Positions 4,586 through 11,881 are shown, numbered from the stretch's first letter. The stretch: DNA of 32,000 nt from Candidatus Brocadia sp. (GCA_021650915.1 CP091279.1:210001-242000), one strand, 5' to 3'. Translations and numbers: made by a program. Notes: a model not told the origin generated them from the sequence alone.

Positions 4586-4915
4586 ATGAAGAAAATCATT
4601 CCTTTCGACCTGGATGGAAGTCCGGTATACATTGAAGTCGAAGATGTCCAGGAAACAAGCGCTGGTTTTCAGCGTGTTGCGCGTGACAATGAAGAAAAAG
4701 GAAAATCAGAAAATCGTTTCACCGATGCGATAACAAAAGTGAAGCCTGCCGCAGAAGCAGTTTTAAAAATGTTTCAGGAAATGAATACCCCGGATGAAAT
4801 CGGCCTCGATTTTGGCATAAAGTTTAACGCAAAGGCAGGCGCCGTGTTTGCTTCTGTTGACAGCGAGGCAACCTTTAAAGTTTCTCTTAAGTGGAAAAAC
4901 AAAAAAGAGGGCTAA
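4586..4915 (+). CDS. small protein resembling the trypsin-co-occurring Trypco2 / CU044_2847 family
   Basis: 109 aa with a good RBS. The N-terminal IPFDLDGSPVYIEVEDV and C-terminal IGLDFGIKFNAKAGAVFASVDSEATFKVSLKWK follow the family pattern as I recall it. It sits immediately upstream of a trypsin-like protease. Confidence 0.6.
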   Translation: MKKIIPFDLDGSPVYIEVEDVQETSAGFQRVARDNEEKGKSENRFTDAITKVKPAAEAVLKMFQEMNTPDEIGLDFGIKFNAKAGAVFASVDSEATFKVSLKWKNKKEG

Positions 4916-4918
4916 CCG

Positions 4919-10400: not shown

Positions 10401-11881
10401 GCTTTGACATGGGAGATCGGTACGGGGATGGGTTTGACGATGAGAAGCTGGTGCATAAGGTATGTGTAAATGATTTTTTCATAGGGAAATACGAGGTAAC
10501 ACAGGGACAGTGGCGGGAGGTCATGGGCGGGAATCCTTCGGGCTTTCAGATGGGAGATGAATATCCTGTAGAAGAGGTAAGCTGGAATGACGTTCAGGAG
10601 TTTATCAAGAGGTTGAATGAAAAGACTGGGATGAACTATCGTCTTCCCACCGAGGCGGAGTGGGAGTATGCCGCCCGCGCAGGATCAACGACACGGTACC
10701 CCTGTGGTGACGACGAGAAATGCCTTGATTCAATTGCATGGTATTCTGCAAATTCCGGTAATACGACACATCCTGTTGGAAAAAAACTACCAAATGCCTG
10801 GGGGTTATATGATATGATAGGAAATGTATGGGAATGGGTGGAGGACGATTGGCATGATTCCTATGCTGGTGCGCCTACCAATGGTATTGCCTGGATTGAT
10901 AAGGAAAGAGGCTCGGACCGTGTGTTCCGCGGTGGCAGCTGGGACGACTACGCCAGGTACTGCCGTTCGTCTTACCGGTACAACAATGATCCGTCGATCG
11001 ACGTCAACCTCCTTGGCTTCCGGCTGGTCTTGCCTCAGGTCATCAGTCCAGCGCAGCCGAAAGCGGAGGCGGAACGCAGCCCGGGAGCCCTGAGGGACGA
11101 AGGGCTACCGGAGCGGAGTGGAGACGAAGCGCAAGGTAAGCAGGCCGAAGTGCCGCCTGCTGAAAGCGAAATCCTGAAAATGGAGATGGAGTTTGTAAGC
11201 ATCCCTGCGGGAGAATTTCTCATGGGGAGTCACAAGAGTGACAAAGAAAAGGATAAAGATGAGACACCGCAACACAAGGTGATCATAAAAAACGGATTTT
11301 CTATGCAGAAGACCGAGGTAACACAGGGGCAGTGGGTGGAAATCATGGGCAGTAATCCATCCTATTTTAAAGAATGCGGTAAAGATTGTCCGGTTGAAAG
11401 CGTATCATGGAATGACGTGCAGGAGTTTATCAGGAGGTTGAATAAGAAGACGGGAAAGAATTACCGTTTGCCTACTGAGGCGGAGTGGGAATATGCTGCT
11501 CGTGCAGGATCAATGACACGATACCCCTGCGGTGATGATGCGGGCTGTCTTGACGCTATTGCATGGTACGGATCAAATTCTGGTGGTACTCCTCAGCCTG
11601 TTGGAAAAAAGCTACCAAATGCCTGGGGGTTGTACGATATGATAGGGAATGTTTGGGAGTGGTGTCAGGATTGGTATGGTGATAAGTACTATAAAAAAAG
11701 CTCTTCAACTGATCCGAAAGGCCCTGAAACAGGCTCGTACCGTGTGATCCGCGGTGGCGGCTGGCACTACAGCGCCTGGCTCTGCCGTTCGTCAAACCGG
11801 AACAGCAATGATCCGTCGTACGTCGGCAACTTCCTTGGCTTCCGGCTGGTCTTGCCTCAGGTCATCAGTGAAGGAAAGTAA
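7418..11881 (+). CDS. 1487-aa three-TM protein: CoxE-type N-region, 2x CarboxypepD_reg-like beta-sandwich, vWA-like core (degenerate MIDAS), 2x FGE-sulfatase domains
   Basis: N-region LRSIGFSIDTRQFVEAH...PEEQATFYKFFDSWL (nt 7445-7687). TM segments at nt 7787-7855, 8468-8533 and 9884-9955. GKVVDQKTGAPVEEVSV...TDGSGFF and VKDKESGVPVAGAEVAF motifs. CoxE-like LDTEATIYRTINTGG...YLVLIDRASFDD and RLLVFTDAEG. FGE-sulfatase motifs (YRLPTEAEWEYAARAG, GLYDMIGNVWEW, RGGSW, LGFRLV) occur twice, at nt 10370-11035 and 11183-11863. Confidence 0.85.
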   Translation: MAQEKLKTCLPILTSEDLIRLAYELRSIGFSIDTRQFVEAHRADDILLGLEVQGELKGPERLKTILAPIFCNTPEEQATFYKFFDSWLSRNARIHEEFKEAGVRVERKPDGQPGWGNFLAQHKYWFISLVSFAVLAIWYFYPMMGVMESKKWLQGKVVDQKTGAPVEEVSVQFNNRAAQTDGSGFFNFGEFPDKTSGDLTFLHPAYLTKTLPGKSTTTQQDMETFQLRRLLKNPRIVVIEVKDKESGVPVAGAEVAFLTKSRRTDVAGKARFNYRREESSTQIDVMHDGYLKNTLTYQLHGYDTVTVSVELVKSLTAEEEAVQSLVERINKVEIVATEGGWMKFYKKYYQKILVGSAVLPFLFLIGWMLGRWYRKPVMLEREATTETPSVDYVMVEWLAEGVFKNSRLRRIIQQFRQHRESVDLELDTEATIYRTINTGGMFTPAYQSRFVLPEYLVLIDRASFDDQQARFVDEIIDRFAADGVYMDRYYFKRAPRVCQPEKPEKPQLALKELITRHPGHRLLVFTDAEGFIDPLTGKLHGWIDQLLHWSDTGIFIPERTDGIRYLERILAKSGFHVEPVSIAGLSRHIERIQFDAASARFDWPLATPYPYLFEDKKDVWLQQAEPDQPHIDELTTALRQYLDEEGILWLGACAVYPELHWELTLYLAAKLTLGDKDTLTAEEQDRLRKKLLEVTRLPWFRYGSMPDWLRLCLIKNLQEKNQHHQIRRIIRELLSSARRDYREGFQKTGRAIRLPVAWKSVIFHLRYLKRKIAALFQRGIDDDPLNDYVFSNYISSGRSLLAVIIPDRVKHLFFRKGQAILGLRPAAGIIMSVAISALVFTAAQWLKPPPSIIDPIPEFAFVKKTSLSGIDGPAGVSRETIAVCLRRFMEHRGISITADADGDYRRVYSQFTIWLAEVLSQKAGLNTSQFAFYTGLTGTPESDFKNVNDKLYVVKAIKIAEKNEESEVAKKTPVVSVTFNIGKLKEDMVFIQGGCFDMGDRYGDGFDDEKLVHKVCVNDFFIGKYEVTQGQWREVMGGNPSGFQMGDEYPVEEVSWNDVQEFIKRLNEKTGMNYRLPTEAEWEYAARAGSTTRYPCGDDEKCLDSIAWYSANSGNTTHPVGKKLPNAWGLYDMIGNVWEWVEDDWHDSYAGAPTNGIAWIDKERGSDRVFRGGSWDDYARYCRSSYRYNNDPSIDVNLLGFRLVLPQVISPAQPKAEAERSPGALRDEGLPERSGDEAQGKQAEVPPAESEILKMEMEFVSIPAGEFLMGSHKSDKEKDKDETPQHKVIIKNGFSMQKTEVTQGQWVEIMGSNPSYFKECGKDCPVESVSWNDVQEFIRRLNKKTGKNYRLPTEAEWEYAARAGSMTRYPCGDDAGCLDAIAWYGSNSGGTPQPVGKKLPNAWGLYDMIGNVWEWCQDWYGDKYYKKSSSTDPKGPETGSYRVIRGGGWHYSAWLCRSSNRNSNDPSYVGNFLGFRLVLPQVISEGK

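Follow-up and report, generated by a model that had tools for sequence, protein, structure and literature searches.

A probable iSTAND-type MoxR-vWA threat-sensing operon with retroelement-targeted lectin domains, most likely inactive, in Candidatus Brocadia

The window analysed here is a stretch of 32,000 nucleotides from Candidatus Brocadia sp. (GCA_021650915.1, CP091279.1:210001-242000), in which positions 4586 to 11881 hold an operon of protease, ATPase and membrane-protein genes. We regard this locus as probably an iSTAND-type MoxR-vWA conflict or threat-sensing system whose membrane component is targeted by a diversity-generating retroelement (DGR), and which is most likely inactive in this copy. 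An earlier annotation made from the DNA alone (the sequence-only reading) had presented the operon as a candidate conflict system and underplayed what disables it, namely a fixed frameshift and a missing DGR cassette.

Gene content and layout of the operon

The map of open reading frames (ORFs) contains five same-strand ORFs, at 4586-4915, 4919-5371, 5353-6402, 6399-7436 and 7418-11881, instead of the four genes first proposed, because the former "gene 2" consists of two ORFs in different frames. The shared strand, the near-zero spacing and the junctions reported earlier were all found in the map: an ATG at 4919 comes directly behind the stop at 4915, the next two ORFs share ATGA at 6399-6402, and genes 3 and 4 overlap by 19 nt (7418-7436). 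The last overlap recurs in the related loci L008 (3220/3238) and L053 (3878/3896). A promoter and terminator scan gave counts not above shuffled expectation, and an Rfam search of the window returned no match. The features of the operon are listed below (TM, transmembrane segment; FGS, FGE-sulfatase domain; VR, variable region).

4586..4915, + strand: gene 1, a 109-aa Trypco1/CU044_2847-family protein, partner of trypsin-like effectors
4919..5371, + strand: gene 2 5' fragment, N-terminal portion of a trypsin-like protease with His37 and Asp79, cut short after the frameshift with RRCMQSA as its C-terminus
5310..5318, + strand: G9 homopolymer, the frameshift site; G10 or G7 would be in frame
5353..6402, + strand: gene 2 3' fragment, the remainder of the protease (Ser156 in GFSGTAVW) and an iSTAND domain without Walker A or B
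6399..7436, + strand: gene 3, a 345-aa AAA+ ATPase of the AAA_5/midasin/MoxR assemblage, catalytic motifs intact
7418..11881, + strand: gene 4, a 1487-aa three-TM putative sensor/transducer protein, the 'vWA component' of the system
7418..7792, + strand: helical N-domain of gene 4 (aa 1-125), predicted cytoplasmic
7871..8350, + strand: two β-sandwich (CarboxypepD_reg/PEGA-like) domains of gene 4 (aa ~152-311, between TM1 and TM2), predicted extracytoplasmic
8672..9199, + strand: vWA-like α/β core of gene 4 (aa ~419-594, between TM2 and TM3), predicted cytoplasmic
10373..11029, + strand: FGE-sulfatase/C-type-lectin domain 1 of gene 4 (PF03781, 2.7e-53; aa 986-1204)
10909..11042, + strand: VR1, a variable region of DGR type with which FGS domain 1 ends C-terminally
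11186..11851, + strand: FGE-sulfatase/C-type-lectin domain 2 of gene 4 (PF03781; aa 1257-1478)
11729..11864, + strand: VR2, a variable region of DGR type with which FGS domain 2 ends C-terminally

Gene 1 matched Pfam Trypco1 (PF19493; 5.4e-26) and the NCBIfam family CU044_2847_fam (6.3e-18), so that the CU044_2847 half of the earlier assignment held and Trypco2 gave way to Trypco1. In a scan of a genome collection, Trypco1-family genes adjoined trypsin-domain genes in many unrelated loci; run with the protease-iSTAND alignment, the scan followed trypsin-domain patterns and returned mostly unrelated trypsin fusions, and it is of limited use for iSTAND synteny.

The downstream part of gene 2 matched iSTAND over the full model (PF19995; 1.3e-27, positions 1-163 of 163). 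The domain lacks GxxxxGK[ST] and has the invariant residues G260, E262 and R272 instead; the P-loop fold without Walker A that had been noticed earlier matches this named family. VMAP-C (PF20028) had no match at the locus and was found only in distant trypsin relatives (P0027-P0029).

Gene 3 matched Pfam AAA and AAA_5, and Walker A (G58-K64), Walker B (D173 and E174), the sensor-1 residue N220 and the arginine pair R231/R232 are invariant. When a seven-sequence family profile was searched against the PDB, midasin scored 1.7e-20, far above the next class, classical Cdc48-type AAA (3e-9), which by sequence would place gene 3 in the dynein-midasin-MoxR assemblage. The MoxR-like AAA+ ATPase of the sequence-only reading is thereby an AAA+ protein with intact motifs, but "MoxR-like" only in a broad sense, because no match to AAA_3/MoxR proper, RavA or NorQ was obtained. 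The best NCBIfam match was the 'MadB family AAA-type ATPase' (NF047784; 5.2e-23), with 81.7 bits against a cut-off of 475. An identity as a MadB family ATPase was rejected at a score this far under the cut-off; the literature gave nothing relevant to it.

Domains and predicted topology of gene 4

Three TM-like segments were found in gene 4 (aa 126-144, 352-370 and 825-843). The ORF map, the hydrophobic segments and Pfam agree with the 1487 residues, three TM segments and two FGE-sulfatase domains described previously. The β-sandwich region matched PF13620 (6.4e-10) and, in Foldseek, the transthyretin-like domain of carboxypeptidase D (5e-5). The predicted topology would place the N-domain inside, the β-sandwich pair outside, the core and a helical domain inside, and a linker of ~140 aa with both FGS domains outside.

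Pfam returned no match for aa 1-125. AlphaFold2 (AF2) predicted five helices there (15-27, 34-52, 59-70, 74-90 and 92-106; pLDDT ~70-87). Kaur et al. (PMC7159879), in the sections considered here, unify this N-terminal region with the CoxE N-domain; the CoxE-type N-region proposed earlier was not recovered by any sequence profile, and AF2 predicts a helical N-domain with moderate confidence.

The AF2 model of the core (aa 385-745; pLDDT 84.7, pTM 0.84) has the order β1-α-β2-β3-α-β4-α-β5-α-β6-α. For both the core and the full model, the best, if weak, PDB folds were the NorD chain of the NorQD (MoxR-vWA) complex (9qhf_G and 9qhe_G), and the matches ranked below it were generic flavodoxin-like only. 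Asp460 and Asp527, which are kept in 19 and 17 of 20 sequences, respectively, are located at the ends of strands 1 and 4, and aspartates at the ends of these two strands, within a six-stranded α/β fold, define vWA in the account of Kaur et al. (PMC7159879) as consulted here. The family of the core is large, with 3205 representatives of 50%-identity clusters at E<=1e-3 and 1033 at <=1e-30. Streptomyces VMAP-type loci were also tried as a vWA reference set and abandoned, as their candidate ORFs had no Pfam match.

A DGR signature in gene 4 and loss of the DGR cassette

Both FGS domains of gene 4 read, from their sequence, as DGR targets, which the earlier annotation had overlooked. VR1 and VR2 each lie where one of the PF03781 domains ends, and these stretches (10909-11042 and 11729-11864) are ~80% identical to related templates, VR1 being 81% identical to the template repeat (TR) of L053. 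Mismatches were counted only at positions identical in all four templates of related DGRs, which are not cognate templates. On this basis, VR1 mismatched at 13 of 32 TR-adenine sites and at 3 of 74 invariant non-adenine sites (p = 6.5e-6), and VR2 at 15 of the 32 and 3 of the 74 (p = 4e-7). VR1 and VR2 differ from each other at 18 of the 32 adenine sites and at none of the 74 others, an adenine-restricted pattern indicating that both lectin domains were written by adenine-directed mutagenesis from a common template. The earlier proposal that the FGS domains act as sensors is strengthened by this signature.

Behind the gene-4 orthologue of L053 (68-71% identical) come an HRDC gene, a reverse transcriptase (RT) gene (RVT_1) and a 136-nt TR at 9920-10055. 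This TR repeats the 3' ends of both FGS domains and is rich in AAC codons, and 23 of the 25 TR-VR mismatches fall at template adenines; judged from its sequence, the element is a textbook DGR. Three further HRDC-RT-TR contigs (L057, L058 and L059) are related; they are the closest RT contigs and match the window at only ~79%.

Within the 32-kb window there is no RT, HRDC, Avd or TR, and a local DGR was ruled out. Homology to the downstream regions of L053, L057 and L059 stops at ~11940-11962, just before their HRDC genes. Two direct 222-bp repeat copies bracket the operon, and copy B occupies the position of the relatives' DGR cassette:

3788..4009, no strand assigned: copy A of the 222-bp repeat, on the upstream side of the operon; 96-97% identity with copy B (11964-12079 plus 13584-13692)
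11964..13692, no strand assigned: repeat copy B (11964-12079 plus 13584-13692), split by the IS110-family insertion at 12080-13583

The insertion is 1504 bp long, with its transposase on the minus strand (12434-13444). The placement of the operon between mobile and repeat elements in the sequence-only reading is borne out by the 222-bp repeats and the IS110 element.

The VRs of this copy are static across samples. The four Logan contigs long enough to enter VR1 (L002-L005) carry an identical VR1 up to the points where they stop (11003-11039), and neither VR differs between the window and a 2015 draft assembly (L001). Among the best 120 relatives of the L053 RT, none was named B. fulgida, which is weak negative evidence. 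In L060, whose gene 4 is 76% identical, a bAvd-type accessory gene lies downstream at 4936-5256, with no RT or TR locally. Orthologous gene-4 targets thus adjoin two types of DGR accessory gene, bAvd in L060 versus HRDC in L053 and L057-L059. DGR erosion seems to recur in this lineage, because L060 keeps only the bAvd gene.

The protease gene is split by a fixed frameshift

The two halves of gene 2 join in frame only by a gain of one G or a loss of two in the G9 run (5310-5318), which restores a protein of 494 aa. Trypsin_2 matched the split ORF at 9.2e-9 over model positions 1-108 of 144, and the restored protein over all of positions 1-144. The latter can be aligned end to end with the intact relatives P0001, P0002 and P0004 (495, 493 and 486 aa; 75, 74 and 59% identity). 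H37, D79 and S156 are invariant in the protease alignment, and Ser156 (GFSGTAVW) lies downstream of the shift. The S1-type protease recognised earlier is therefore real in its Trypsin_2 match and its His, Asp and Ser residues, but its catalytic triad is divided, His and Asp on one ORF and Ser on the other, and no single intact polypeptide is encoded.

The gene 3 protein is also found on a Candidatus Brocadia fulgida NCBI draft contig (LAQJ01000245, the L001 draft) and in many Logan assemblies. The species name B. fulgida for the source of the window comes from BROFUL_02667 and BROFUL_02669. G9 was unchanged in the six assemblies fetched, the NCBI draft and five Logan assemblies, and each of the five Logan contigs agrees with the window at 99.99-100% identity over a stretch that starts at 4209 and ends at 10675-11039. 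A sequencing error at the G run was ruled out, and the frameshift is real and fixed, because six independent assemblies read G9. Moreover, a collection of 5.8 billion protein clusters returned no in-frame allele near 100% identity; at 100% identity, it held only the 324-aa downstream fragment.

The G9 run forms G_GGG_GGG in the correct phase, and a -1 slip there gives exactly the restored protein, the junction in the read-through product being GKLRGGGTAQGW. No stimulatory RNA structure was found 3' of G9 (z = 0.18). The closest intact relative, L007, has AAGGGCCGC at this position, without a G run and with 2 nt fewer. As intact relatives have no G run there, G9 is not a conserved recoding site, and programmed -1 frameshifting was rejected on these two grounds.

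Relatives and effector exchange

All four genes (Trypco1, trypsin-iSTAND, AAA and a gene-4-like protein) are present in L008, whereas L053 and L054 carry a DUF4062-iSTAND gene, a Pfam-confirmed AAA gene and a gene-4-like gene. L056 encodes a TIR-iSTAND protein and a gene-4-like protein with three genes without a Pfam match between them. The conservation of gene neighbourhood that the sequence-only reading had suggested checking was found in L008, L053 and L054, where the iSTAND, AAA+ and gene-4 families are adjacent.

Among the gene-4 relatives, the N-terminal ~830 aa are kept and the C-terminus varies, with FGS, Lcl_C, PKD plus PASTA, OmpA, CHASE2, caspase plus TPR, Macro, TCAD9 and IcmF-related domains. 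DNA homology between the window and L053 (79.6%) starts at 5583, the beginning of the iSTAND domain, which indicates that the effector module, Trypco1 plus trypsin versus DUF4062, is swapped as a unit.

In L053, the segment 1546-10055 has DUF4062-iSTAND in place of Trypco1 and trypsin-iSTAND, and the complete DGR after the gene-4 orthologue. A more divergent arrangement was seen in L045 (6692-14447), a Thiothrix metagenome-assembled genome, which encodes, in order, an FGS protein, Trypco1, a 555-aa trypsin protein (Trypsin_2 under the Pfam threshold), an AAA ATPase and two more FGS proteins, the first of them 986 aa long. This order resembles the clade 5A-type arrangement that Doré et al. associate with DGRs.

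Comparison with known systems

Kaur, Burroughs, Iyer and Aravind (2020, eLife 9:e52696; PMC7159879) described four MoxR-vWA "ternary" systems, of which the iSTAND system is subsystem 2. According to the sections of that paper considered here, to which the statements on it below are also limited, the MoxR protein of this subsystem lacks VMAP-type extensions and belongs to the helix-2 insert clade (dynein-midasin, MoxR and YifB as well as chelatase), and its vWA protein has a CoxE-type four-helix N-domain. N-terminal TM segments occur in ~28% of cases, FGS is the commonest C-terminal domain (~22%), and PEGA, OmpA and PASTA domains come with a preceding TM segment. The iSTAND proteins carry N-terminal trypsin, caspase, TIR or DRHyd domains, and Trypco1 or Trypco2 genes accompany the trypsin domains.

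Measured against these descriptions, the Brocadia operon is probably a member of this described, computationally predicted iSTAND ternary class and matches it closely: a short AAA+ gene is adjacent to a partner with a helical N-domain, TM segments, PEGA-like and FGS domains, and a Trypco gene is present. The earlier proposal of a vWA-MoxR ternary class was thus sound, given Pfam iSTAND, Trypsin_2, Trypco1 and two FGE-sulfatase matches and the synteny. The operon is not, however, the new "membrane-spanning variant" suggested at the time, because Kaur et al. already describe a TM- and FGS-bearing iSTAND subset. This copy differs from their iSTAND system in its frameshifted protease and in that vWA and CoxE-N were not reproduced with hidden Markov model profiles. 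The host, an anammox planctomycete, also lies outside the main hosts that they name (cyanobacteria, proteobacteria and bacteroidetes). Compared with the VMAP ternary systems (subsystem 1), the third component is iSTAND, with no VMAP-C, and gene 3, compared in outline only, lacks the VMAP-type N- and C-terminal extensions. Explicit links to DGRs are drawn, in the sections considered, for the VMAP systems and not for the iSTAND ones.

Doré et al. (2024, PNAS 121:e2316469121; PMC10907252) described DGR-diversified MoxR-associated C-type lectin (CLec) "antigen sensors". Closest to the present operon are their Thiohalocapsa DGR 9 and clade 5A loci, in which trypsin occurs without VMAP, no vWA is recognisable in the N-terminal extension of the target, and multiple TM segments put CLec on the periplasmic side. 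Both also have Trypco adapters and tandem VR-bearing CLec domains. In contrast to those loci, the window has no RT, accessory gene or TR, its VRs do not change across samples, and the complete arrangement occurs only in L053 and L057-L059.

Like the NorQ/NorD and CoxD/CoxE pairs, the operon combines an AAA+ protein with a vWA-like partner, and NorD is the best structural match of the core. Unlike them, it has no cofactor-insertion context and adds membrane, lectin, iSTAND and protease modules, and the match is weak, with the canonical MIDAS motif missing. The Esr pathway of Schaalia odontolytica (bioRxiv 10.64898/2026.09.08.750141) is a β-propeller MoxR-vWA system shown experimentally to be a surface threat sensor. 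There, too, a surface-exposed variable sensor signals via a MoxR-vWA pair to an intracellular response, which supports the sensor logic adopted below; Esr differs in its β-propeller sensor and kinase/FHA/Esx output, and has no iSTAND, protease or DGR.

Proposed function and state of this copy

In the mechanism that we infer for an intact version, gene 4 would be the sensor and transducer, its helical N-domain and vWA-like core facing the cytoplasm and its two β-sandwich and two FGS domains facing outward, with the DGR VRs as a diversified ligand-binding surface. Binding of an external ligand would be relayed across the membrane to the vWA-like module, which would engage the AAA+ ATPase encoded by gene 3. 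ATP-driven remodelling of iSTAND might then release or activate the N-terminal trypsin-like protease, Trypco1 possibly serving as adaptor or restraint, and the outcome would be proteolysis and growth arrest or signalling. This copy is most likely a decaying relic; decay is the simplest reading because the protease is split, the DGR cassette is lost, an insertion sequence (IS) element has entered and the VRs are static.

Several points weigh against this interpretation. The NorD fold match is weak (E 1.5-1.9e-3, probability 0.99-1.0, TM-score 0.25-0.41), and the core has D-R-A-S-F where the canonical DxSxS MIDAS motif would be. No Pfam vWA or CoxE match was obtained on gene 4, VWA_2 appeared in 2 of 20 relatives (E 0.023), and profiles built from 20 and from 100 members of the family matched no vWA protein among the PDB sequences. 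The vWA-like core proposed by the sequence-only reading consequently has NorD as its weakly best fold and two conserved aspartates in its favour but no sequence profile behind it; the modelled core is a plausible candidate for a vWA domain. Additionally, the topology of gene 4 was derived solely from hydropathy and domain logic, and canonical MoxR, RavA and NorQ structures were outside the top sequence matches of gene 3. PADLOC (PADLOC-DB v2) had no model for the system, giving generic trypsin (LmuA, PDC-M35A) and P-loop matches only and nothing for genes 1, 2b or 4, and a literature search found no experimental study of an iSTAND-type member. The survey covered 32 kb, and a trans-acting DGR might lie elsewhere in the genome.

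The state of the G9 run bears on whether the system could still be functional, with the run as a switch, working through phase variation, slippage during transcription or a -1 shift on the ribosome, that keeps the effector mostly off. Homopolymeric G tracts are classical slippage sites, this one is in phase for a -1 slip to the restored protein, and the remaining genes of the operon are intact and of full length relative to their homologues. Nevertheless, the absence of a G run from intact relatives and of a downstream RNA structure, the invariance of G9 over the six assemblies, the lack of a near-identical in-frame allele in the public protein collection, and the cassette loss and IS insertion, which point to decay, make a switch unlikely. 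We give little chance to a more elaborate version, in which G9 would be a bet-hedging catch opened by minority slippage, or the split protease would reassemble on the iSTAND scaffold, with the VRs rewritten in trans by a DGR elsewhere; if true, an anammox bacterium would have a receptor-to-protease pathway that spans the membrane, can be switched and is hypermutable. The original model of Kaur et al., in which cleavage of the vWA protein by the protease sets "effector" domains free, was proposed for VMAP and iSTAND systems (PMC7159879, in the sections considered, and as summarised in PMC10907252). It sits poorly with three TM segments that predict FGS and protease on opposite sides of the membrane, with close relatives that have DUF4062 or TIR, which are unable to cleave, in place of the protease, and with a DGR diversification that marks the FGS domains as ligand binders, and we hold it to be distinctly unlikely here. 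The sensor model of Doré et al. is favoured over the cleavage proposal because protease and FGS are predicted on opposite sides of the membrane and relatives use the non-proteolytic DUF4062 and TIR.

Two further explanations leave defence aside. The outward-facing β-sandwich and lectin domains would suit a diversified surface lectin for cell-cell recognition or aggregation in anammox granules, with MoxR and iSTAND in assembly or quality control, and such systems are enriched in aggregate-forming bacteria according to the same sections of Kaur et al. (PMC7159879). However, the partners that are conserved count as effectors of the death type (iSTAND fusions of trypsin, TIR and DUF4062), and modular effector swapping is typical of conflict systems, so that this role appears very improbable. 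A MoxR-vWA chaperone pair with a housekeeping role in cofactor insertion, as in CoxD/CoxE or NorQ/NorD, could account for the pairing of an AAA+ gene with a vWA-like gene and for NorD as the best fold of the core. It has next to nothing in its favour once the iSTAND, Trypco1 and protease partners, the hypervariable C-termini and the DGR linkage are considered; moreover, no metalloenzyme neighbour was found, the flanks consisting of IS elements, repeats, a DEAD-box helicase gene, transketolase and the ATP synthase operon.

iSTAND/MoxR ternary systems are known by computational prediction only. A well-delimited example, such as this locus with its relatives, helps to choose between the two published models, and the predicted topology and effector swap favour FGS as the sensor and the iSTAND N-domain as the effector. 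To the sequence-only reading, this analysis adds the connection with DGRs, the fixation of the frameshift, the loss of the cassette and a set of intact relatives fit for experiments, among which L008, L009 with L060, and L053 with its complete DGR are better candidates than this copy. The locus also exemplifies a costly conflict system dismantled by frameshift, DGR cassette loss and IS insertion. For Brocadia, the gain is mainly a correction of annotation. Within the operon, the 2015 draft differs from the window only by single-base homopolymer deletions at 9852 and 11088, because of which it annotates gene 4 as three 'hypothetical proteins' (845, 394 and 233 aa).

Flanking regions

The upstream region 3262-4585 has repeat elements and no ORF with a family match. 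Same-strain short-read contigs break at 4209, suggesting that the genome has further copies of the sequence up to ~4208. Further upstream, a 556-aa ORF at 1591-3261 has a weak DDE transposase domain (PF13751; 1.3e-4, under the cut-off) and may be a mobile-element remnant. A 117-bp repeat (96% identical) occurs at 3461-3577 and 17796-17912, and its second copy runs into the 3' end of an ORF for an AbiEii-like toxin at 17145-17822 (Pfam AbiEii, 3e-15). A complete F1Fo ATP synthase operon (I, a, b, delta, alpha, gamma, beta and epsilon) lies at 24555-31768, and other housekeeping genes in the window encode transketolase, a DEAD-box helicase and an SbtA-like transporter, which puts the operon in an ordinary chromosomal context.

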